Of a DNA stretch of 64,000 bases, positions 5,133 through 59,553 are shown piece by piece. Below the pieces are notes generated by a model, which saw nothing but the letters and a program-made list of their open reading frames with translations, ran no database searches and was not told where the DNA came from. The stretch comes from Rozella allomycis CSF55 (Eukaryota). The first letter of the stretch is position 1. Each line of letters opens with the position of its first letter. The DNA lies in NCBI GenBank assembly GCA_000442015.1, contig KE561045.1:1-64000 (forward strand). The letters are read 5' to 3'. Both the position numbers and the translations under genes were made by a program.

Positions 5133-7698
5133 TTATTGTTGTTGAACGCCTTCAGCCTTTTGATCGTCAATTTGCTGAGTTATAGGCTCCACGTCATTTT
5201 GACTTTCTTCTTGTGTTACATCCGCTTTGACTAGTGGCTCAGATGCGGGAACATCGCTAGAATGTTGATTTTCTGTCAATTGACTTTCCTTTTCCTCCTT
5301 TCCTTCCTGTGTTTCTACTTGAATTTGTTGCTCTGTTGATTCAGGTTGTGGTTGCTCATTGCTGGGTACATCTGAAGGGGCGACGACTTCAGATTTGGAA
5401 TCTTCTGCAGTTGTATTTTCAGTTTTTAGTTCTTCCTGGTCAGCCAGATTTTCACTGGGAGCACCTTCAGTTTGTTGATTCTCAGCATTAGTAATTACTT
5501 CGCCAGGCGTTACTTGTTCAACTGGTTGTACCTCGTTGGTGGCTGGGCTAATGTCATCTTGTGTAACAAGAATATGTGGTTGTGAACCATTTGGAGTGCT
5601 AAAGAAGAAATTTATTTCCCTCTCTGCACTTTCTAGAGAGTCGCTTCCATGAACTGCGTTTAATGATCCATCTGTTCCAAACATGGCCCTTATACTGAAA
5701 TCAATGAAATAGAACCAAAATACCTATCTGGAGCCTCTTCTTTGGCTTTTATAGAATTAGTCGGTCCTATAGCTTGCCGCCAAGCCTGAACCGCATCTTC
5801 TTTCTCTAAAATCAACGCGATGATAGGAGAACAACTAAATTCACAAGGGCAAATTTTACCTTGAAATCCATGAAGTCAATGTTTCATAAAATGGCTTTCC
5901 TTCATGTTCCTTGTAAAATGATTTTGCCTCATCGATCGTTAAATGAATTTTCTTTTGAGCCGCAATGTTGAAGCCCTTTTGTCTGATTACATTTAAAACT
6001 TCTTCCTCTCTTCCAGAAGAAATGATGTCGGGTTTAATCATAGCAAATGTCCTTGGAAGAATAACTTCAGGCATGGAACCACTGCTTACAGAATTACCAG
6101 AAGAAAATAAGTGTGGGAAAATATATTCAATTTCAATGGACGCATAATCTACTGATTTAGATCCATGGACGGCGTTTTGAATCTCATTGGCGCCATAACG
6201 AGCACGCAAGCTAAAGAAGATCTTTACATAAGGTTACCATTCAGGGGCAAGTTCTTTGGCCATTGCAGGATTTGTAGGTCCTATACAATCTCTCCATTCT
6301 TTCACAGCATTTTCTTTCTCAAGAACCATCGCAAGTACTGGACCACTACCGTAAATTCATATTTCATTTTCTACCTGCTTAACCAATTTATAAGATTTGC
6401 AAAGTATGGCGCATTTCTGTGCGTTATGTAAAATCCAGTTGCAGACTCTTCAGTAAATTGAACTTGTTCCATTGTAATTATCTTAAAGTCATGATCCTTA
6501 ATGTAATCAACAACTTCTGCAGCCTTTCCTGACTGAACAAGATCTGGCTTAATGATAGCCAATGTACGTTGAATAGGTGATATATCTTCTGGAAAAAAGA
6601 ATTTAACTTCCCTCTTGGCTGCCTCCTCGGATTTGCTACCATGAATTGCATTTCTAACAGTATCAGTTCCAAACATGCCTCGCAAGCTATTTCCTTTGAC
6701 CTTTATTTTTACCATTTTGAATCATTTTCTTTGGCCAGTTTTGGATTGGATGCACCAATTAACGTCCTCCAGGCACTCACAGCATTTTCCTTTGACAAAA
6801 TCATAGCAAATACTGGTCCCCTATATTCAAATGTAAAAATAATTACTCGCTCATATAATTTACCAATGATTGAAAATATGGCTGGTTTTCGTGGTCCTTG
6901 AAAAATTCAGCAACCCTTTCTGGGGTAAGCAATACCTCTTGCTGTTGCACTATTTGAAAGCCATTCTTATAAATATATCGCTTCACATCGTCAACTTTAT
7001 TTTCACTAACAATATCAGGTTTTAAGATTGCTAAAGTCCTTTCTTCCCTTTCATTGTAGAACACATGTTTCAGAGATGAGCCTTGCCTATTGTTTATTGT
7101 TCTTGCTTTAATAGACGATCTATTTCCTTCTGTTTCATTCAACTGAAGGTAATGAATGAAAACTAGAAAAATATATTTGGAAAATGAAAAAAGCATAAAT
7201 TTTAGAAAAACTTACTGGTACATGAACACCTCCAGTCTTTTCAATGTTTACCTCTTCCTTTACATATTTCTCTAAAAGTGGGGTGTTCGCCCCTTTCACT
7301 TCCTTGACCAATACCCCAGCCTATGAGTTTTGACACGTCATAATTACTGCATAAATTAAGAAGGTCGGTCGTGATTTGTTTCTGTAGATTGATAAATCTG
7401 AGATTTGATCACATTGAACCTATAATTATAGATATCTAACCAATACCTTTGCAAATGAGACAAGATCGCCATTCTCCGTTTTCAGTTTCTTTAACACCAA
7501 TGACATAGCTTCACATGAGCCAGCCCAACTGGAAAATACATCAAATACTAGTAAATTATGCCCTTGTATGCGATTTACTGTGAACACCAGGTTTTTCACA
7601 TTCTCCCATAAATTCTTCATCTGTAGACAGAAAGTTTTTCTAGTATAATTCAATTAGTTCTATTTTACCTTGACTTCTTCAGTATTCTTTCCCAACAT
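5133..7698 (-). CDS. NME8: Thioredoxin-like domain + three nucleoside diphosphate kinase domains (NME8/NME9/TXNDC3-like axonemal protein), acidic tail; 11 introns
   Basis: FDVFSSWAGSCEAM Trx-like motif; three RT(L/F)A(I/M)(L/I)KPD ... NA(I/V)HGS NDK repeats. Confidence 0.8.
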
Positions 7699-14830: not shown

Positions 14831-15298
14831 ATGAGCTCAAATCAAAAATACTGCAACAACAAGAATCTGCATTTATCAAACAGTGCCGATGCAAAACACA
14901 AACATTCCAGGATTCGGTCTCCATCAGAGCCCAACAAAACTCCACGGAAACAGCGCCCCACTTCAAACTCTCAACAGTACAAAGAAAGACCACACTCGGC
15001 TAAATATTCCAAAGATTTATTTTCAGAAAGATATGCTGGAGCCGCGTACAATAATGCTCCATGCGCTAGCTCGCTCCCCATTCCTATTTTCAAAAAAGAA
15101 AAGACTGACTCTGAAAACTATGATAAACCAGAAAGCGGAATACACTCGTTATCCTCGTCTCCGGCTAGTTTACCATTTATTGTAGAGACAGGCGCTCTTA
15201 AATGGAATGGAATTTTATCGAAAAGGCGACCCAGCAATGAAGATATTAAACTGGATATGACGAATGATTTGAAGAGGCTTTTGAAGATCAACTCCTAG
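14831..15298 (+). CDS. PNRC/Edc1-like decapping-enhancer motif protein
   Basis: Disordered protein with YAGAAYNNAPCASSLPIP motif and C-terminal MTNDLKRLLKI. Confidence 0.7.
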   Translation: MSSNQKYCNNKNLHLSNSADAKHKHSRIRSPSEPNKTPRKQRPTSNSQQYKERPHSAKYSKDLFSERYAGAAYNNAPCASSLPIPIFKKEKTDSENYDKPESGIHSLSSSPASLPFIVETGALKWNGILSKRRPSNEDIKLDMTNDLKRLLKINS

Positions 15299-15480
15299 TC
15301 GACATTATGGAGCCGCATAACATGTATGAAGCCTATGGCGGAACCCTTTGTTATGCACTCCAAGTTTTGAAATTAAAAAAAATAAAAAAAATTTATTGCG
15401 GTGCGGGTGGAAACATTCGCATACGCCTAATTTATAATGAAATTTCTAAATTGCACCTTGTTACTTTATAGAATTATATA

Positions 15481-24929: not shown

Positions 24930-26002
24930 TGCTTGTCCTCCCAGCGATTTTCTCATATATATCGATAGCATGACGCTTTCCTGTTTAATCAGTTTTGTTG
25001 TGGCTCAGATAGGCGATAGCTGATTACATTAACCATTCCGCACGATAGCGGCATAACCAAAGCTAGGAATTAGGGTGACNCTTGTAACGGAGAGAAAGTG
25101 TACAAACATAACGTTGAGAGTGGGTTGAAGTAATTATGTTCTTGAAGTTGAACGATAGCCACTGGACTGTTCGCACAGTGACAGACGCTTTGAAGGCTCT
25201 CAAACTGGCGATTAAAGAAAATGATACTGTAAATGATGAAAATAATGTCGTAACATGCTGCTGAAGTGTTAAACAATATGGAAAGTCTTGATATTAACAA
25301 TAATTTTATTGTAAGTACCCCGGTAGATCCAGAGGATCAATTCCTTTTTAATTTTACATAAATTTACTTACCCTGGTCTGAAAAAATTATTCTCTTTGTC
25401 ATAATGTCAGTCTACAACTTATAACAAATAATAAGGATTCAAGTGATGACGATCATTAAATCAATAACTAGTAATTTCCTCAATTGGCGTCACGATATTA
25501 TATTTTAAATATAAAAAACATTTTTCTCTAATATTGTGGGAAATCATGATGCTTCCGGACGTAGGTGCATGGTTCGAGCCCTATCACCCGTTTCCCGTAA
25601 AAATCCTGGTGATTTTTTCTGGTAATTTCCAAAACTTAGTACCGTAGAATTCTCCAGAGAATCATAAAACCCTATGAGTAGTATTGTCCCCAGCCCTGCT
25701 CCAATTACACCACGAAACATTTTTTTTATATTTAAAATAATTTAATGAAAACTCTGGCAAAATTTGGAATAATCAGTTTTGCTGTGGCCAGTAGGGGATT
25801 GATTACATTAACTATTCCAAAGCAAATAGCTTAGTTTAGGACAAGTCTAAATTTTATGTAAATGTTTATTGGAAAAAAGATCAGTCAATATTTGCAACTT
25901 TCCAGTTCTTCGGATTTAATATTCTCGTCATTNTTTGAATATGGTCTTCCCTCCTGCCACCCGACACATTTTTTTATATTTTAAACATTTTTTATTTAAA
26001 GT

Positions 26003-44341: not shown

Positions 44342-46635
44342 ATGGGAAAGAAGAGAACTCAGGATGTTTATTCTGATGAAGAGGATTTAGAAATAACAAA
44401 AGATGATCTACTTGACGCTGAAATCGACTCTGAAGATGATGAAGAGATAGAAGAAGATCTCGCATTTGACGAAGAAGACGAAGAGCGATATGGAATGTAT
44501 TTTTCTAAATCTAATAAAAATGATTCTGATGAAGAAAGTGATGATGAGGATATTGACGAAGACGTAAGACATTTGGCTAGTTTAATAATAGTTGGACGAT
44601 GGGGCTATAGACATATCTGAACTTCTTGGAAAGGATAAAGATGTGGTTCAGTATCCCAAAGTAGACGATGATTTGGATTCAGATCCAGAAGATACTGAAG
44701 CGGCAGAAAAATTGGTAAATTTTGTGGCTAATTTGGATAATGAAAATCCGGTGTGTGAAGATAAGACTGAAAAGAAACTAAATATTGAATCTTTGTTGTC
44801 TGCTTTTAGCGGTGAATCTTTTGGTGGAAATTTAATAAAAAAAGTTCAATCCTTGGAGTCTAAACAAAAGTCTTTGGTGGTTGATGCACCATTGGCACCT
44901 AGAATTCAAAACAGAATTGATAGACAAGTTGCTTACGAAGATCAACAAAGGAATATGAATAAGTGGACTGGAATTATTCAACAGAATCGAAAAGCGGATG
45001 TTTTGGATTTTACCAAAAGAGAACAACGCATAAATTTGAGTAGTGCATCGTTAGCAGCTACATTCCAACCTCAAAATGATATGGAGAAAGAGATTCAAAG
45101 TGCCCTTGAAGCTCATGGCTTGACTGAAGAACAGATCAGAAAAGGAGAAGAGTTAGAAATGCGTGAGATGGACATTGAAGAAGTTAGACAGAAAAGGGCT
45201 GAATTGCAAAAGCTTCGATCCTTAATGTTTTTCCAAGAACAAAAATTGAAGCGAATTTCGAAAATTAAATCTAAAAAATATCGAAAAATCCTTAAAAAGG
45301 AAAAATTGCGACAACTTGAAAAGGAGGGTGTTCTTGAGGATGATGATAGAATGGAGAAAGAGATTGAAAGGGCAAGAGAAAGAATGACATTGAGACATCG
45401 TAGCAACAACAAATGGGTAAAGAATGGAATGAAGATGAATAACCCTGGTCACAACAAGGCGGCATTAGAGGCGCAGTTGAGAAGAGCGGATGAATTAGAA
45501 AGGAAGATTAAAGGAAATGAATCTGAAGAAGAAAGTGAAACAGAAATTATGGAAAGCATTCAGAAAATGGACGAGGAGTTACCCCAAAAAGGAATATTTG
45601 CTATGAAGTTTATGCGTGATGCTGCCATACGCGAAAGACAAGAAGCCATGAAATCATTGAATGAAGATGATAATATAGAAGAAGAAACTGGAAATGTTAA
45701 AAAGATTCAAAATAATCCTGGTAGAGTTCAAGTGAAGGCAAAGTCAGCGGTAAGGGAAAAAGAGAATGGAAGTGTAAATGTGTCATCCAAAGCACATGTT
45801 ACAGTTGTACCTCAAAATATTTCAATCAAGCCTTTATTGCCTACAGTGTCCTTTGATGATGAAATGGATGACGATGTAATAAAATTTGATGAGGAATCTT
45901 TTCATTCAATTAAAAAAGATGATAAAAAGGAGACCCGAAATCAAAGCGATTCTCAAAACCCCTGGCTTGAACAAGTCAATGCGCCACTTCAAAAATCAAA
46001 ACTTAAAAAAGAGCAACGAAAAGACATTGAGCCAAAAGAAATACCAATAAATGGTAAAAATTATTTGTTTAAAATAATAGTTAATATTTCAGAATCGATT
46101 GATGAATCAAATTTGCTTCGCCCACAAATCAATCAAAAAGATCTTGTCATGGAAGCGTTTGCCAATGATGATGTTGTTCAAGAATTTGAAAATGAAAAAG
46201 AAGAGATTATGAAAGATGAAGAGTCAAAGGAGGTTGATGAAACGTTGCCTGGATGGGACTCGTGGGGTGGAAGTGGCATTGAAGCACCAAAAAGAAAGAA
46301 GATTAAGAAAATTGAAGGAATTGATCGCGATGAAAGAAAAGATTCCAAACTAAAGCACGTCATTATTAATGAAAAGAAGTGCAAAGGCGTAAATTCAGTT
46401 AATGATGTTTAACATAGGCTGCCAAGTACATGGTCGACAAAGTTCCCTATCCCTTCCAGACAAGAGAACAATATGAAAGGTCTCTGCAACTGCCGATGGG
46501 CAAAGAATGGATGACAACACTGACATTTCAAAAACTTGTCAAACCAAAAGTAATCTTATCAAAATTCTTTATTGCTAGGTTATCACTCATTCAGGTATTG
46601 TTATTGATCCCATTAAATACACACCTAAAAAATAA
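44342..46635 (+). CDS. UTP14: U3 snoRNP protein Utp14; ~4 introns
   Basis: RIDRQVAYE, RISKIKSKKYR, RARERMTLRH, LPGWDSWGG, PYPFQTREQYERSL. Confidence 0.93.
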
Positions 46636-46746
46636 ACTTTTCAAATCTAATCATCAATACTTACTTATATTTATCATATATAGCTAGCTCAAATTCTATA
46701 ATATCTGTTTTCTAATTTTCAATTTCGTGTCAACCCTGGAAATTCA

Positions 46747-48450
<1,704 letters not shown>

Positions 48451-48483
48451 TAAATTTAGTTTTTACAATACATAAATACAGCT

Positions 48484-49566
48484 TTATTTACTTAAAGGCT
48501 TTACTTGAAGTTGAGAAACTATCATTGTCAACTTATCTACTCCTTGAGGAACAACTTTTCCAGCATTTTTGGACCAGCTGGGTTCAATCGCATAGTTTAA
48601 TATAAACCTAAACTTTCTCAAATTAAATGGCCAATCATTTTTGTTTCCAGTATTGGGATTATTAATTTCATGGGATTTTGTACCATCGCAAAAGAAGGTC
48701 AACCTATCCGGTGTTTTTTCGACTGCAAAAATCATAGGTTTGTTGGGCTGTATCGCACATTTGCTCGCAACACAATCGCATTTATCTCTATTTTTCGCTC
48801 CATAATGTGCTCCTTGGTTAACGGCAATTTGTCCCCATCCTTGATTATATTCGAAAATATCAATCTCTCCATCATATGGCCAATGAAAAGAATCATTTCC
48901 ATCTCCACCTGGTAACATCCATACAGCAGGAAACGCTCCTGGTACGGTCTCTGTCAAAGTTACTGTGGCTTCAAAACGTCCATAATCAAAGCCAACATTG
49001 GATTTTATTCTTGGTGCATACCATCTGCCATTTTTTCTTATTGCATGCAGATAAAGGCTACCATTCTTACTGTATATAACGTCGGGACTATCAGTATAGT
49101 CTTGAGCTTCTCCGTTACCATCCCGCCCCGTTTCTGCGGTCCAAATATCAAAACACCAATCAGACTTTTGAAAGTTTGCAAGATTTGCTGACCACGTACT
49201 ATAGCTATCGCTAGAATTAACTGGTGCTGGCGGCGCGTTATTTTGATTTGCATCTTGTTTTGAATTATCCTGATTTGTAGGAGATACTGGAGGGGTATTG
49301 GATGCAGGCGTGTTACTTGGAGGGGTGTTGGAAGCTGGCGGGGGTTCGGATTGCCTTTGAACTTGATTTCCGTTGGTATTTTGTTCAGTACTTGATGATA
49401 TCGCCTGTGGTTTTGTATTCCTTTGTTCTGCGATAAAATCGTTTACAAGTCGAACAATTTTCTGGACATCCTTAGATGACAGTCCATTGAATAATTCGTC
49501 AATATTGAATTGATACGAAATATTCAAAGCAAACATCACCAGTACTATTTTAGCGAAAAACTCCAT
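48484..49566 (-). CDS. Secreted GH16 glycoside hydrolase (beta-1,3-glucanase-like) with P/S/N-rich linker, intronless
   Basis: Signal peptide MEFFAKIVLVMFAL; GAFPAVWML; WPYDGEIDIFE catalytic motif; WPF...FILNYAI. Confidence 0.88.
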   Translation of the reverse strand: MEFFAKIVLVMFALNISYQFNIDELFNGLSSKDVQKIVRLVNDFIAEQRNTKPQAISSSTEQNTNGNQVQRQSEPPPASNTPPSNTPASNTPPVSPTNQDNSKQDANQNNAPPAPVNSSDSYSTWSANLANFQKSDWCFDIWTAETGRDGNGEAQDYTDSPDVIYSKNGSLYLHAIRKNGRWYAPRIKSNVGFDYGRFEATVTLTETVPGAFPAVWMLPGGDGNDSFHWPYDGEIDIFEYNQGWGQIAVNQGAHYGAKNRDKCDCVASKCAIQPNKPMIFAVEKTPDRLTFFCDGTKSHEINNPNTGNKNDWPFNLRKFRFILNYAIEPSWSKNAGKVVPQGVDKLTMIVSQLQVKPLSK

Positions 49567-49899
49567 TCTGTGTAAAACAGGAGTAACCAGGGAACATGTT
49601 ATATATAGCATCAGTTTGCTATTCAAATTGCATCGCTCGCATTGATAATGCTATTTTGACAGACTAATTCCCTGAATTATTTGGAGACTAACTGTAAATT
49701 TGTTTACTTGCAAAAAACACCACGAACAATTCTAGTCTTGGCAAGTTGGCGAAAACTTGATGTAATCTATTCAGCGGAATCACCAGATAAAGGACATTCA
49801 AACAAAGATCTTGATTGTTTTTATAACAATAGAATTCTCTAAATATCAGTGACAATTTTACGAAATCTTTTTGTTTGACTGAGCCACCAGAAAATACCC

Positions 49900-50856
49900 A
49901 TGACGCAATACAGCTGCGCTGTCTGCGGCGGTCCAGCATCCTCAGTCTGTAGCCAATGCAAGAAAATGCCTTACTGCTCAGTCATCTGTCAAAAGAAGGA
50001 TTGGCTATCTCACAAAAATAGCCACAAAATACCTAATTTACTCATTTACCCGGATCATGCGAAATGGACTCCTGATGAAATCATAAAATCTTTCAAGGAG
50101 CATGGCTATATCATTATTAAGCTCTTAAACAAGGAAAACCAACATCTGCTGCGTGAAATTGATAAAGCTAGAGCAAAGCTCTTTGAGTATCCAGTGGAAA
50201 CCGTGAGAAAAGAATTACATCTGCCTGATACAACGAAAGATGCTTGCTACATAGCTGGAAGTAACCTTCAAATGGTGGATATACGTCCATACGACAAAAT
50301 GACAAAAATATTGCCTGATCCATCTGTGTTAGTGCCTGGTTTTAAGGATATCTTTTTTCAATGTTTAAATTTCTTTAGTGAAATTTGCATTAAATTAACT
50401 GAATTGGTATTTGAAAAGGTGCCTACGGTTAAAATATTTGGCTGTTCAATTGCCAATGGTGGTGACTTGAGTTTCTGCAGAATGTTGAATTATGTTAAGG
50501 CTGGAGAATTGTTCCCACCTCATGTTGATAACGGTTTCTTTACTGTATCTACTAAATCTACATCAACGGGTTTGGCTGTTAAGAATCCGTTGACTGGAGA
50601 GTATGTCTATCCAGAGATGCTTATGACTGAAAATGACTTGGTTGTTATTGCAGGACAAATCATGGAAGGGTATACTAAAGGAATAATCAAAGCAACTCGG
50701 CACGCTGTTTTTGTTCAAACCCCTCCTAGGCAAACCACTCTCTTTAGTATCCATGTTGGTGGAAGTGTTTTTGGAATGATGGGAACAGAACCTGATGAAG
50801 ACGAAAAATTTGAAATGTTTATGCGCAAATATGAGCCAAAGCAGGTTGATTTCTGA
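49900..50856 (+). CDS. MYND zinc finger + 2OG-Fe(II) dioxygenase (IPNS-like fold), intronless
   Basis: CAVC..CSQC..YCS..CQKKDW..H; RMLNY, HVD, ATRHAV and R co-substrate residue. Confidence 0.8.
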   Translation: MTQYSCAVCGGPASSVCSQCKKMPYCSVICQKKDWLSHKNSHKIPNLLIYPDHAKWTPDEIIKSFKEHGYIIIKLLNKENQHLLREIDKARAKLFEYPVETVRKELHLPDTTKDACYIAGSNLQMVDIRPYDKMTKILPDPSVLVPGFKDIFFQCLNFFSEICIKLTELVFEKVPTVKIFGCSIANGGDLSFCRMLNYVKAGELFPPHVDNGFFTVSTKSTSTGLAVKNPLTGEYVYPEMLMTENDLVVIAGQIMEGYTKGIIKATRHAVFVQTPPRQTTLFSIHVGGSVFGMMGTEPDEDEKFEMFMRKYEPKQVDF

Positions 50857-51006
50857 AACTAAATAAAATCCATTTGCTTGTTTTAATCCACGTTTCCAAT
50901 TTTCTTAATTACATTTATTAAAGTAAATGATTTCTTTTAAATAACATTCACTCTTCCATTGTTTGTATGTTTTTAATATGCCAAAAAATTATACAAAGAT
51001 CATTCT

Positions 51007-53585
51007 TTAATATTTATTTGCATCCATTAATGTAGCTTTTGCCCTCAGGCTATATTCCTCCCTTTCCCTTGCTATTTTTATATATCGAGGGATGTCGGGA
51101 ATAATCCATTGAATAAACAACTTCACAAGAATAACAAGATGCTTTTTAAATGGGGTATTAAGTAGCTTACCTCAAAAAATAGAATGAACAGTAATCTAGC
51201 GGCAAGTATTCCGTTGGCATCATCTCTTACAAATTGTTTAAACACATTATCCAAATTTGAAAATGTTTCAATATTTTACTAGAAGCCATTGAGAAGAAAA
51301 TGCTATCAATGTAGCATTTGTTATCACTGAAAGATAGCTAATTGTTTGAAGAAATTTCAACCACACGCCTTGAAAATGTATTTTAACAATTCATACCTAT
51401 ATCTTGTGCTCTAAATGGAATGGGCCTTTTGCATGCAAATAGCAATAAATGGAAAATGTTCGTCTTACCATTTTCTTTGATGTTGTTCTAATTTCGAGAA
51501 TGTTATTTAAAAATGAAAAGAGAGGAGCTAATGGAAACGCAATACTGAAAAATGATATGAATCCAAATTGAATAACTAAAATTCATCAATAACGCAGAAT
51601 TGATTACTGGTAGCTTTGTACTCTTGTAAAAATGAAACAGGTTCTAGTAATGTCGAATCTTTAATGTATGAAACTTCTTGTGGATCCTTCAAAGGAATAA
51701 CTTTATCAGAGGCGAATTTATTTCTAATGTATGGCAAAATGAATCTCTATGGTCGTACGAATGTGATTACGGCAAAAAATAATTAAGAAATTGATTGTAG
51801 AACTGATTCCCAATAAAAAGCGTCACTAGCTGAAACATAAGATCAATCAAGCATGAATCCGTACAAGTGTCATTCCACTCATGATTTCCAAAAATTGCCT
51901 TTCCCCATGCCTCTTTAAAGTAGCCGATGTAGAAGAGAGATGAATATGAATTGATAAAGTCAAACAAAAATAACTTCAAAATAAGCGAGTCTTCAAATTG
52001 AGTATCAGTTTTGTGGTTTTCCCATTTTGTTAGCAACAATGAAATTCTTGCGTAAACCTTATATAGTTTTCAATTCAAAATTACTGAAGACAAAAGAATA
52101 ATTGACATAAGGTTAAACAAAGATGCTATAAAATTTGACAAGTATCCATTGTAGCCATTTTTTAAACTTAATGCTCTAATCCATGCTCGAAAGACAATTA
52201 TCCCGGTAACTGAAATCAAAACGATGGCAACCTTTTCGAAAACCACCTTAATTTTTACACACAGCAAAATGATCATCAAGGAAAATGTTATTTTTGCATT
52301 CATGAGCCATTCTGGATAATAGTCTTCAGTTTTCCCAGTGATTAGACTTATCCTTGTTTTAGTTGGTTTCCATTCTGGTCTAGTTATTTCCTGGAAAAAA
52401 AGTAGGAATTAATTTACTTCCTTTTCGAAATCCTGCGTTCCCCAATTATATGAGAGTTCGTTACTTTTTCTTTTCCACATTTCAGTAAGTATAGTCGACC
52501 AAATAGAAACAAGAAAAGAAAAAACAATGGTTAACTCGTTATCAAACAGCTTTCCAAATTTAAAATCTTTATCTTTTATCATCTTATAAACCCCAAATGC
52601 AAAAACAAAAATACCAATAATGGTTATAAAAAGCAATGATGTCGTGTAAAAGCCTTGCATGATGCATTGTTTGATTAAGATTACCAATCCAAGCATAAAA
52701 CAATGCTGCCTTTTCCCCGAAATATGATCTCACAAGATTTAATGGTTGCCTTAACGGATTCGGTGACCAACAAGAGGAAAGCATTTTTCTATCATCATGG
52801 GGGACATAATACGTTTCTATAAGTTTAAGTGATTTCAAATCGTTCAACCGCAGCCTTTTCTTTCCATATGAAATTTCCACTTTTTTAATCGAATCGTAGA
52901 CGACCAAGCTTCGAATACGAGAATCAAGCAAATGCTCTTTGGAATTTACCGACTCTGTCTTCTGAATAATAGGATCTTGATGTAACTTGTAATTTAGCTA
53001 TACTTTACATTACGAGTCGATCATTCAAATTCATATTCAATCTTTTTACCCCAATTTTAACCAGATCAAAAGGCATGAATATTTTCGCAAAGTATTTCCT
53101 CATGTTTAATTCTTCGATTACCTCTATAACGACATTTTCATTCGCAACAATTGTTTTAAAATATTCATCTCTTTGTTTCATTTTATCATCATCATTTTGA
53201 TTGTTAGGAAACAACATCACCAAATCTGGCAAACAATCATGCAACAGACAACTGATAACTGCATCGGCACCTGCTTCGTGGTCTCATAAATTGTCTAATT
53301 AATCATTACTGTATTTTTGCTTTAATATGACAAGATCGTAATTAGATAACGTGTTTTCCGCATCGGGGTCAACTCCATTCAATTTGAGCTCATTTAAAAT
53401 ATTTGTTAGAGTATCTTGATATGTGACGGGATATATTATTTTTCTTTGACTTGATAGTGTCAACTCTGCAGTCATAAATGTTTTGATTATCTCTGTAACC
53501 AATAATTTAATCAACAAACCACCCCAGTGATTCAGTGACAGTGTCTGAACACCTCATTAGCTAATATCGGTTAAGAAATAATACA
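51007..53585 (-). CDS. Anoctamin/TMEM16 channel-scramblase; ~14 introns including two GT-TG; 5' end uncertain
   Basis: QPLNLVRSYFGEKAALFYAW, LTKWENHKT..FEDSLILKLFLFDFINSYSSLFYI, IQFGFISFFSIAFPLAP, EIR...KRP...AQDIG.W. Confidence 0.9.
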
Positions 53586-53674
53586 ATCATTAAATTTATT
53601 GAATCTCTTGGGCACCGGTATACGAGAATTTCGATCCAGAATTAACTTTTATTCTTTTCTTCAAAGNTCCAGAT

Positions 53675-53944
53675 TTAAACTTTATTCTTTTCTTCAAAGT
53701 ACTTTTCAACATGACTTGGAACATTTATCCGAAAGACCGATTTATCTTTGATTATTTCATATTTCTTTTCTCCCTGCCTCATGAGATGTTCAATAGTATT
53801 AATTTGCGTTCTTGGAATATTGCGATTGATGTCAAATTCATAACGTATCGCTTTTTGGAATTCTTGCTGGAACTCTCTTGGTTTTGAATGTACAACCCTA
53901 ACAAGTTTTCGATAAAGTGCCAAAACGTCATTCTTTATGGTCAT
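53675..53944 (-). CDS. SDH6: LYR-motif succinate dehydrogenase assembly factor (Sdh6/SDHAF1-like)
   Basis: VLALYRKLVR..HSKP...IRYEF...IPRTQINTIEHLMRQG.KK. Confidence 0.75.
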   Translation of the reverse strand: MTIKNDVLALYRKLVRVVHSKPREFQQEFQKAIRYEFDINRNIPRTQINTIEHLMRQGEKKYEIIKDKSVFRINVPSHVEKYFEEKNKV

Positions 53945-54337
53945 CTGAATAATTGAATTTCGTAATGAAATTTTTGCCTCTTTATTCAAAAATCATAAAA
54001 AAATATTTTCAGTGTGAGTGTGCATACATTTCGTAAGCTAATAAATATGCTTCAAAGTCCAAACGTTCCATTAAACCCCAAAAGGCACAATTTTAAAGTC
54101 ACTTACGCTCCCCAACTCCAAAGCAATCCATTGAAAATCTAAAACAACATCATAATTTACTTACTGGATTTGCGCATTACCAATCCGGTTTTTTCGGACT
54201 CGACGTATTTCGTAAGTGAAGATTCCGAGAAAGATATGCGCGTTTATTTAAATCCCTTTAAATTTCATAATCAAACAATTTTGTGTTTTCGAAAATTTTC
54301 GTGTTGTAGAATCGGGCAAAGTTCCAATTTTCAAGGA

Positions 54338-56181
<1,844 letters not shown>

Positions 56182-56226
56182 ACTTTTTCTATTAAGCATT
56201 CATTATAATTGTGCTTTATATTTTAT

Positions 56227-57330
56227 TCACATGATAATGCAACTATCTGGACTCTTTTTCTCATTCTTCAAATGATACTTTCCTTTCTTTATTTCTTTCA
56301 GTCTTTCCGCTGCTCTTTGATATCCTTGCGCTGCTGAACGTGAATACCATCGTTTCGCTTCTTCTATATCAGGCTTCACCCCAATCCCTTTTTCAGAAAA
56401 GTATCCCACTGCATATTCCGCTTTTGCATTCTTTTGATCCGCAGCCTTTCTTGCGTAAACGTAGGCATCAGTGTCCGATTGTTTCAGAACTCCTTCAACT
56501 CCAGTCAAATACCACCCAGACAATGCAAGTTCAGCATCAGAATAGTGTTGATCTGCCGCCTTTTTGTAATTCTCAATCGATTGTTGCGGATCAACAGAAC
56601 ATCCTAACTGTCCATATTCGTAAAAACATCCAACCTTATAAAGCGATGGCGCATAGCCTTGTTCTGCCGCCTTTTTATACAATTCTAGGGCATATGACTC
56701 ATCTTGCAGAACAGCGGGGCAGTTTGGTGTCTCATAACATGCTGCTAAATCATGCAGTGCCTGCGGATTGTCGGACATATTTACAGTTCTTTTTAACCAT
56801 GTAACACCTTCCTTTGGATTTTTTGGTTGTCCAAGCCAGCCATTTAGCAATATCATACCCAGCTTGTGCATTGACAATGGGTCACCAAGAGAAGCTGCTT
56901 TGCGATAAAAGTTCACCGCTCTCCCAAAATCTTTCTTCGTTCCAGCACCCAATTCATAACATACTCCAACTCGATATGTTGCTGCAGGATGGTTCTGCTT
57001 ACTTCCCTGCAAATAATACCCGAAAGCCTTATCATGACTAATGGAGAGCCCATATAAACCTTTTCCGAACGCCTCTGCAAGAAAGAAATGAGCTTCAGGG
57101 AACGACACCTTTCCCGCGTTCTGCGTTGTTAATTTCCGAACAATTTTAATAGCTTCTTGTTGCAATGCGCTTTTTGCCTTTGGATCTGATAGAGCTTCAG
57201 AAGCGTCAATAAGATAATTTGCAAAATCAAACTGTACTTGAGGATCATTGCTCTTCAGTGCATTATTACGATACTGTTCTAACGTCTGATTAAAGTTTTG
57301 CGTAATTCGAGCCGGAGACGTGCTTGGCAT
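56227..57330 (-). CDS. Sel1-repeat chitin synthase activator (Chs4/Skt5-like), intronless
   Basis: DPQVQFDFANYL, YRVGVCYELG.GT, ELALSGWYLTGVEGVL.QSD..AY. Confidence 0.85.
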   Translation of the reverse strand: MPSTSPARITQNFNQTLEQYRNNALKSNDPQVQFDFANYLIDASEALSDPKAKSALQQEAIKIVRKLTTQNAGKVSFPEAHFFLAEAFGKGLYGLSISHDKAFGYYLQGSKQNHPAATYRVGVCYELGAGTKKDFGRAVNFYRKAASLGDPLSMHKLGMILLNGWLGQPKNPKEGVTWLKRTVNMSDNPQALHDLAACYETPNCPAVLQDESYALELYKKAAEQGYAPSLYKVGCFYEYGQLGCSVDPQQSIENYKKAADQHYSDAELALSGWYLTGVEGVLKQSDTDAYVYARKAADQKNAKAEYAVGYFSEKGIGVKPDIEEAKRWYSRSAAQGYQRAAERLKEIKKGKYHLKNEKKSPDSCIIM

Positions 57331-57512
57331 ATTTTGTAGAAATCAGACCGGTCGGAGTTTTAATTAATCGGGATTCTTTCGAAATGTCAAAACTCTTTTA
57401 AATTTAATCTCAAAGCATCCTTTCTTGTTTTGACGTTTAATTTTATTCCTTTTGGAGTCTTACACGAATTTGTGTCACTATAACATAAAATCGCATTATA
57501 ATTGGGTTCATT

Positions 57513-58716
57513 ATGAATATCTTAAATTTTTTACAAATATTCGCCTTATTAGGTTCACTGTTTGCTCAACAAAGCAAGTGCCCTAACGGGATTAGAATTC
57601 GAAAAGAAATAAGAGATATGACCAATGCAGAGCTGGAAGCATTAAAAAATGCCATTAATGTGATGAGAAGCACAAGCACTGGAAATAGAACAGAAACTAT
57701 TTACGATTACATCGTCAAAGTTCATTTGGATTACGTACCAATCGCTCACAAGTAACCTTATCACTAAAATGGAAATAGCACTCCCCAATTTCTGCCGTGG
57801 CATAGACTTTATGTACTTTACGTTGAAGACATTCTTCGTCAGATCGACCCTACGGTCACCATTCCTTATTGGGACTGGGGTGTTGATGCTGCCAGGCCTC
57901 TTAACAGTGTCGTGTTCAGTGATAAATACTTTAATATTCGACCAGGTAACATAATCTTAGGTCGAAATATTAAGGCCCACAAGGAGATTGCAGTTTTAGG
58001 GTGATTTACCCGCGAGTGCACTGTGTTGTTAGAAATTACAACGCCAACAATTTTACAACCTTTATAAACTCTGAAACTCTGCAAAGCATAGCTAGTGACA
58101 CTGAAGGAGATTATGGATCATTCAGGGAAACAATTGAGTTTATTCCCCATGCAGTTGTTCATTCTGGAGTTGGCGGAGTCAATGGTGATATGACGTAAAA
58201 TTGTACACTGAAATATAACAAAGTTCAATGATGAGCCCCAATGATCCCATATTCTGGCTTCACCATAGTATGATTGATAAGATTTGGGCTGATTGGCAAG
58301 AACAAACAGACAACTTTTGGTTGTATGAAGGGACCCACCTTGGACAAACAGCTAGTCTTTGGAACAATTTGGAACCATTCAAGTCGAATGTGTGGCAGAG
58401 TATGGACTTTGATTCCTTATGTTATCGTTACGCCCCGCTTTCCAACCGACCACAAATGTTAAGCCATGAGGAATTAGAAGATACTCCGCTACCCGATCGT
58501 ATTCCATTATCCTGGATTCAAATGCACGGGATGGACGAGGAAAAATTTAGAAACGTAGAAAACAGAATCAGATCTATAATGATGGCGCAAAAGGAAGGAA
58601 AAGAAATTTCCAGGGAAATTACAGGCGCTAAAGACAATAATGAAGGGGCAAAATTGTCATCAACACTGTTTTATTCAATAGCAATTGCACTATTGGCATT
58701 TATACCTGCCTTTTAA
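57513..58716 (+). CDS. Secreted tyrosinase-family di-copper protein with GPI-like C-terminus; 3 introns
   Basis: RIRKEIRDM, H...H, FLPWHR, IPYWDW, PHAVVH, SPNDPIFWLHH..IDKIW; hydrophobic N- and C-termini. Confidence 0.9.
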
Positions 58717-58721
58717 TAAAT

Positions 58722-59553
58722 TTAATGTCTAGCCCTTGAACTTCTGCTTGACCTGTAATCATCACGATCTGGAGATCTACTTTTGCTTTTTTCTCGATTT
58801 ATTCTTTCAAATCTAATTTGAATTATAATTACCTTTTCTCGCGATCCCTGTCATAGCTTGGAGATCTGGATCTTTTTCTTCGGCTCTTTCTGTCGTAACG
58901 GTCAGAGTAATCATCTCTTTCCTATATTATTAATATTGATTTTATTACGCTGCTGTGATAACGAGTACGACTTTTGTAATCTCTTTCGCGACTGGGCGAC
59001 CTTCTATAACTTCTTTCATTTAGCTCTTCATACTCCTCATTATTCGCATCAGCAACCTTTAGTAAAATAAATTTGTATTTTTTACGTATATTCGTTTCTG
59101 GTGACCGTAATCATCTCTGATTCTCCTTTGTTTTTGACAATATTGCTTCCATGTTTGTTCTGTAAATCCATAGTTAAAATAATCAGTTATATCAGCTCCA
59201 GGTTTTCTCCAAGGTTTTTCTTCTAACTCTTCTGGATCCACATCAATGATGTCTCTCCCATCCTCCAACTTTCCACTTGTTTGAATATCCAAAAATGATT
59301 TATTTTCAACGGTATTTGCTTCAGCAGGTTTTATTCCAGATTTAATATTGACTAAGTTTTGTTCCCTGAATATTAAAAAGCAAAGAAACTCACGTTGCAT
59401 CATCAAGAACAACCTCAAAATCACTTTCTTCACCCTCTTCCAATTCATCGTCAACAGCCCTGAATAAAATACAGAAATTATTTCTTACACTTCCTGTTCT
59501 GTTTTTTCTTCTTTCCCGTATAGAAATTCGTCGAGCTCGTCGACTTCTTCCAT
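58722..59553 (-). CDS. FIP1: Pre-mRNA 3'-end processing factor Fip1; 5 introns
   Basis: [33 protein letters not shown]-rich tail. Confidence 0.93.

Follow-up and report, generated by a model that had tools for sequence, protein, structure and literature searches.

The 3′ AG of U2-type introns is among the most constant signals of eukaryotic gene expression. In the compact genomes of Oikopleura and Fritillaria, short introns depart from GT-AG at the percent level, most of the departures affecting the 5′-end or both ends. TG acceptors have been verified in 36 human genes where, according to Szafranski et al. (2007; PMC2374985), they are always an alternative to an AG located no more than 28 nt away and account for ~0.01% of the candidate motifs. 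The introns of Rozella are ~30 nt long (PMC6349667), with a density of 2.5 per kb (PMC8476143). Ultra-short introns are also described for myxozoans and Dicyema, which have medians of 22 to 27 nt (PMC13644364), and for Paramecium and Nyctotherus, at ~25 nt (PMC5014332). Here we describe three candidate introns that begin with GT and end with TG in a 64,000-nucleotide stretch of DNA from Rozella allomycis CSF55 (contig KE561045.1, positions 1 to 64,000), which is referred to throughout as the window. Two of the candidates, I6 (51468-51443) and I8 (51279-51252), are located in a gene that encodes an anoctamin (TMEM16-family) protein, and the third (54791-54818) is in an unrelated gene, on the opposite strand, for glycerol kinase. 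The sequence evidence argues that all three are probably real U2-type introns in which UG would be the only productive 3′ splice site, since the alternative AG in each case is out of frame.

The window is R. allomycis nuclear DNA. The NCBI protein ROZALSC1DRAFT_21527 (P0001) has 100% identity over the minus-strand exon at 51773-52057, and a second R. allomycis CSF55 protein, P0004, has 98% identity to the glycerol kinase exon at 55237-55428 (plus strand). The G+C content is 32-41%, and there are 17 single N positions. Nine introns were modelled in the anoctamin gene downstream of 52700 and five of its exons match Pfam PF04547 (Anoctamin), with single exons scoring 88.3 and 45.9 bits relative to a gathering cut-off of 28. 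Short exons of 34 and 35 amino acids (aa), when submitted alone, had no Pfam match, and the 15-codon exon downstream of I6 is too short to be evaluated alone by hmmscan. The residues in this exon that are identical to those of the cnidarian protein P0002 (RP.PFRAQDIG and its neighbours) are present only in the frame used here, and the exon is followed by an ordinary 28-nt GT-AG intron. A metagenome scan with a 95-aa anoctamin exon returned 10 loci with 41-59% identity, none of which is near Rozella.

A 26-nt GT...TTG segment is confirmed to be present between two of these anoctamin exons. On the minus strand, it is preceded by AAG AAA ATG and followed by CTA TTT GCA TGC AAA AGG CCC, and the minus-strand sequence given for 51468-51443 in a preliminary description of this DNA is an exact match. 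The flanking exons are in different frames, and removal of 3n+2 nt is needed to join them. Use of the first AG at a usable distance, as had also been noted in that description, is out of phase: it would remove 43 nt and result in a stop codon. An AG only 5 nt into I6 is far too near the donor to function as the acceptor. Our own dynamic-programming exon chainer, in which stop codons are forbidden and GT donors allowed, found no path through the 3′ half of the anoctamin gene with GT-AG introns of 18-45 nt; when longer introns, or GC or AT donors, were admitted, all of the paths lost conserved residues, as exemplified by the FPLAPL...NNILEIR motif.

The length of the segment to be removed was then scanned with the donor fixed at 51468 and removals of 0-59 nt, each scored against two distant anoctamins, P0002 (from a jellyfish) and P0003. 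The preliminary description had argued for 26 nt from a TMEM16 comparison motif, which is replaced here by these alignments. Removal of 26 nt is the sole best of the 60 options, with a mean score of 116.5, ahead of 110.5 (n=23) and 109.0 (n=20), and it results in an alignment with both proteins that is free of gaps from the NN..E.R motif to the RP.PFRAQDIG motif, in agreement with the TMEM16 spacing originally proposed. The in-phase options that end in AG scored 104.0 (n=5) and 73.0 (n=58). Retention of I6 with a 9-residue insertion (n=2 to 17) scored 104-106, as did read-through with a frameshift, in comparison with 116.5, and was rejected.

At I8, 190 nt downstream of I6, a frame change of 3n+1 nt is forced between an exon that ends SSQWLL and an exon with ILAARLLFILFFE. 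The sole GT there is at 51279 and there is no in-phase AG; every GT-AG route across this junction deletes conserved exons. Among the in-phase lengths from 24 to 32 nt, only 28 has a terminal G. In the glycerol kinase gene, which has matches to Pfam FGGY_N and FGGY_C, a strongly conserved exon, the STYFS exon, has 59-70% identity to glycerol kinases from other eukaryotes, and only removal of 54791-54818 connects it to the exon that ends DKNAFL. There are 40 frame-consistent, AG-ending routes that keep the STYFS exon and not one has a GT or GC donor. Length scoring is also highest for n=28, with 158.2, followed by 156.8 for n=25. No database protein was found with the Rozella STYFS exon. The preliminary description had cited an independent gene on the opposite strand as an argument against a local artefact; this is most likely the glycerol kinase gene, and the 28-nt GT...TTG segment within it does parallel I6. 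An AG is present 17 nt past the TG of I6 (at 51427-51426), 26 nt past that of I8 and 10 nt past that of the glycerol kinase intron, and its use breaks the frame in all three cases. Such proximity is expected by chance in AT-rich DNA.

To place the candidates among the other introns of the window, genes were mapped by Pfam searches of 325 stop-to-stop open reading frames (ORFs) of at least 55 codons, and introns were modelled in 23 genes, 21 chained by the program and two by hand. The first haem lyase ORF tried (15268-15468) was left out, as was the N-terminal part of an ABC transporter gene (25336-24817), for which the path had atypical donors. Typical introns, with a GTA donor and a length of 24-38 nt, make up 73 of the 76 modelled; the remaining three, of 18-20 nt, are doubtful program calls. 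Every one of the 73 begins with GTA, and 63 of them with GTAA. Their modal length is 26-28 nt (51 of the 73), and 70 end with AG and three with TTG. T is the most common base at position -3, with 32 of the 70 AG introns ending TAG, and is present at this position in all three TG candidates. For each of the three junctions that could not be solved by GT-AG there is a GT...TTG solution of 26 or 28 nt. With TG constituting 0.065 of the dinucleotides and TTG 0.026 of the trinucleotides in the window, the chance that all three would have TG at the one in-phase length within the modal range is ~3e-4, and for TTG ~2e-5, both being post hoc estimates.

When TG was allowed at low cost, the chainer also placed TG ends in the ABC, MCM7, tyrosinase and glycerol kinase genes. 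These additional picks either have GTA donors and an AG of the same frame class a few bases further on, or have non-GTA donors, and they were not counted because a GT-AG path exists for each such gene. A scan for 'orphan donors' (58 orphans in 138 contexts) was too noisy, and missed short exons due to a 40-codon limit; a listing of ORF pairs and counts of acceptor endings had the same defects and were used for no conclusion. The introns of the window are strikingly uniform. The tract before the AG is A-rich rather than pyrimidine-rich, and a TGAT or TTGA motif that may be the branch site is often located 10-16 nt from the 3′-end. In the N-terminal region of the ABC transporter gene, atypical donors or short introns were needed to chain 25006-25103 (minus strand). 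There, when TG was admitted, the program chose a 22-nt GTAAT...CTG segment (25027-25006), which may be another non-AG intron or simply the result of a poor model.

Table 1. Positions in the window of the candidate introns and of the genes, exons and AG discussed in the text
Feature	Coordinates	Strand	Description
I6, candidate GT-TG intron, anoctamin gene	51443..51468	minus	26 nt, GTAAG...TTG, phase 0
I8, second candidate GT-TG intron, anoctamin gene	51252..51279	minus	28 nt, GTAAA...TTG; 3′ boundary less certain
Third candidate GT-TG intron, glycerol kinase (FGGY) gene	54791..54818	plus	28 nt, GTAAAG...TTTTG
Anoctamin (TMEM16-family) gene	51007..53181	minus	From the P0001 start codon to the stop after ...ANKY; further 5′ exons possible
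Upstream anoctamin exon	51469..51575	minus	FPLAPL...NNILEIR motif, ends ...SKKM; PF04547 positions 334-368, E 5e-12
Downstream 15-codon anoctamin exon	51397..51442	minus	Starts LFACKRP, includes PFRAQDIG
First AG at a usable distance 3′ of I6	51426..51427	minus	43-nt intron (51468-51426), out of phase, gives a stop
Glycerol kinase (FGGY) gene	54143..56096	plus	Eight modelled introns; Pfam FGGY_N and FGGY_C matches

Both of the public gene models fail at or before the candidate TG introns. P0001 ends ...NYFLP, at the donor of a 26-nt intron (51770-51745) ~280 nt upstream of I6, and the model therefore never reaches I6. It also skips the exon that encodes the first transmembrane segment (52560-52653, minus strand; starts FYTTSLLFIT), using an intron of ~115 nt in place of a 31-nt GT-AG intron (52654-52684, minus strand). 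P0004 reads through the candidate intron of the glycerol kinase gene and then removes a 37-nt GT-AG piece (54845-54881, plus strand) that is coding sequence inside the conserved exon, with the result that the STYFS segment is replaced by unrelated residues. Gene finders that accept only GT-AG have, in this way, given a truncated anoctamin and a glycerol kinase without its STYFS segment.

I6 has the GTAAG donor, the 26-nt length and the T at position -3 that are typical of introns in the window, and has TTG at the site where these have a 3′ AG. It would then be a member of the normal Rozella class of ultra-short introns, with a GTA donor and 26-28 nt, in which UG is present in place of AG. Its precise removal would join ...SKKM to LFACKRP... 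and so give an intact TMEM16/anoctamin protein, and I8 and the glycerol kinase intron would be removed likewise, in which case UUG would be the sole productive acceptor for ~4% of the introns in the window. When introns are this short, distance from the donor and branch point is probably what mainly determines the 3′ site; the terminal G would be kept and the A at position -2 could be replaced by U. The last G of an intron pairs with the first G in the second catalytic step. Cleavage of the RNA at the UG is what we infer from the DNA sequence, the logic of the frames, homology and the lack of a GT-AG alternative, and the GT-TG interpretation offered in the preliminary description is, on this basis, supported as the best reading. 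A broader proposal, that a few percent of the 26-28 nt introns of R. allomycis have UG, in a UUG context, as their constitutive and only 3′ splice site, we regard as evenly balanced.

All of this presupposes that the DNA sequence is correct. Contigs from four public runs were compared with the window over 46600-58800, with 40 of the 115 differences listed; one of the runs, X2, is from a sample and study other than the probable source. The three segments are covered, without indels, by contigs from X2, X5 or both, which excludes indel errors at these sites, and no base change within the segments is among the differences listed for X2 and X5. A single X2 contig extends across both I6 and I8 (record 5, 50994-52617) with 0 gaps and three other letters, of which those at 51082 and 51614 are listed; the third is probably within ~30 nt of a contig end, as only differences away from the ends are listed. 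In X5, record 12 (46915-53030) has 30 gap letters, at 47679, 49819, 49820 and 49837, all outside the anoctamin gene, and there are no gaps in record 14 over 54791-54818. Record 8 of X2 (54809-55024) has a single change, at 54942, and so directly confirms the TG of the glycerol kinase intron. P0004, which is from another assembly, has the same length and reads F-Y-F-E-N across this acceptor, and the last two intron bases there must therefore be T or C, followed by G. Genomic reads with AG instead of TG, named in the preliminary description as one result that would speak against it, are not found at I6 in X2 among the differences listed, and X5 has no indel there. Base errors are unlikely in I6 and I8 and are excluded in the glycerol kinase segment. 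Given these data, an error of sequencing or assembly, with a true AG at each site or an indel that would put the downstream AG in phase, has a negligible probability. The 17 single Ns, the many differences from other runs, not all of which are displayed, and the sequencing and assembly errors reported for genomes of this group (PMC13393502) all speak for such an error, but it is very unlikely that the same kind of error arose independently at each of the three acceptors. Two runs were uninformative on expression over 46600-58800: the RNA run X13 had matches only to 18-23 nt pieces of two contigs, and run X12 had no contig match.

If the sequence is right, the exons might still be joined in some other way, through other non-canonical borders, by use of the downstream AG to give a shortened or alternative protein, or by ribosomal frameshifting. 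The same I6 mRNA results if both borders are shifted by 1 or 2 nt (GG...TT or TG...AT), the glycerol kinase junction, where a displaced cut would alter the product, has its 40 AG-ending, frame-consistent routes with non-GT donors, and the position of the I8 boundary leaves room for other solutions. We consider such joining very improbable, as each segment is of modal length and opens with the GTAA(A/G) consensus donor, no AG-ending route has a GT or GC donor and use of the downstream AG introduces stops or loses conserved residues; no signal for ribosomal frameshifting was seen, though none was sought. The introns are not of the U12 type, for which the donor consensus is of the type (A/G)TATCCTT, unlike the GTAAGA, GTAAAA and GTAAAG present here. 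Nor are they TA-bounded internal DNA segments of the kind excised by ciliates: Rozella is not a ciliate, and a TA...TA arrangement, obtained by a one-base shift, is possible for I6 but for neither I8 nor the glycerol kinase segment.

It is also conceivable, though unlikely, that the acceptors are dead, AG having mutated to TG, with the introns now retained or cut at an out-of-phase AG and the two genes being weak alleles or pseudogenes of recent origin. In humans, AG-to-TG mutations lead to the use of AGs nearby and not to splicing at the TG (PMC2374985), two of the three cases are within 220 nt of each other in one gene, and Rozella is described as a reduced obligate parasite (PMC6349667, PMC13393502). 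Random decay would, however, be expected to give exon frameshifts, stops and broken donors, and none of these is present in either gene. The exons of both are open and conserved, their sole defects being the three AG-to-TG differences, which are identical in change, position and base, and this absence of varied lesions likewise led us to reject a processed or decaying pseudogene. The 15-codon exon downstream of I6 has kept the RP.PFRAQDIG residues that are common to the cnidarian anoctamin. I6 and I8 are both spanned by one unbroken X2 contig, from which it would follow that in this run there is no other haplotype with an AG allele.

Several points nevertheless weigh against functional UG acceptors at these three sites. 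The support for them comes from DNA, reading frames and homology, with splicing itself deduced, and the intron census is built on our own dynamic-programming models of the DNA sequence, two of the genes having been modelled by hand. In the length scoring, homology does not settle the 3′ boundary of I8, because the loop encoded there is variable, and in the glycerol kinase gene the scores for n=25 and n=22 are nearly as high as that for n=28. In the comparison with other runs, 38 of the 60 X5 differences in 46915-53030 and one X2 difference in 50994-52617 are unlocated, and a substitution at the acceptors of I6 and I8 in a second haplotype is not formally excluded. In humans, according to PMC2374985, TG is used only as an alternative beside an AG, never as the sole acceptor, and AG-to-TG mutants are not spliced at the TG.

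The comparison with X2 and X5 also revealed substitutions in dense clusters, such as seven within 67 nt and nine within 62 nt, for example at 48118-48184, 52618-52679 and 55025-55200. Within these clusters X2 carries both forms, each at about half depth, which looks like two diverged haplotypes, and the 17 single Ns may be ambiguity codes at haplotype sites. A further difference is on the anoctamin side of an LYR-family gene, at the 3′-end of the latter or immediately beyond it, where an X5 contig skips 33 nt within 53634-53668. There is an N at 53667, and the minus-strand translation repeats on either side of it (LKKRIK...SG twice), so that this is either a 33-nt tandem duplication absent from one haplotype or an artefact of gap closing. 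Elsewhere in the window, 5136-7211 (minus strand) is one gene for a protein with three nucleoside diphosphate kinase domains in succession and, after them, a long Q/E/S-rich acidic tail, and 48487-49650 (minus strand) is an intron-less ORF of 388 codons with a weak match to GH16 glycoside hydrolases and a proline/serine/threonine-rich repeat linker (PPASNTPPSNTPASNTPP).

If UG is indeed a productive acceptor in Rozella, and at the rate observed in the window, the genome would contain hundreds of UG-acceptor introns and many of the publicly available gene models for Rozella would have errors there. As Rozella provides the reference genome at the base of the fungi and microsporidia, these errors would be carried into studies of gene content and intron evolution. 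Acceptor choice in this lineage would depend on distance and a terminal G rather than on AG, and the introns of 26-28 nt would constitute a natural system for the choice of site in the second catalytic step. We found no report of TG acceptors in Rozella in the literature searched, which did not include the Rozella genome paper (Curr Biol 2013), and there is no mention of them in the supplement of PMC13393502. Rozella RNA-seq data already exist, as stated in the acknowledgements of PMC13393502.

Compared with the described systems, the anoctamin itself has nothing unusual, and aligns with the TMEM16/anoctamin family (PF04547) through its conserved segments. The difference from Oikopleura and Fritillaria is in the intron borders: in Rozella the change would be confined to the acceptor, at the A of position -2. 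With other reduced eukaryotes that have ultra-short introns, Rozella shares the 26-28 nt length, the GTA donor and the narrow spread of lengths, but the published introns are GT-AG, with the motifs weakened in some lineages, and TG acceptors are not reported in the accounts consulted (PMC6349667, PMC13644364, PMC5014332). The closest parallel is with the human GT-TG introns (PMC2374985) which have, like the Rozella candidates, a GT donor, a TG acceptor, a pyrimidine at position -3 and an AG within 28 nt downstream and are otherwise of the U2 type. The human preference for a purine at position +1 is matched by two of the three candidates, I6 being followed by C. In contrast to the human sites, the TG in Rozella would be the sole productive acceptor, and in ~3 of 73 introns, all of which are 26-28 nt in length.

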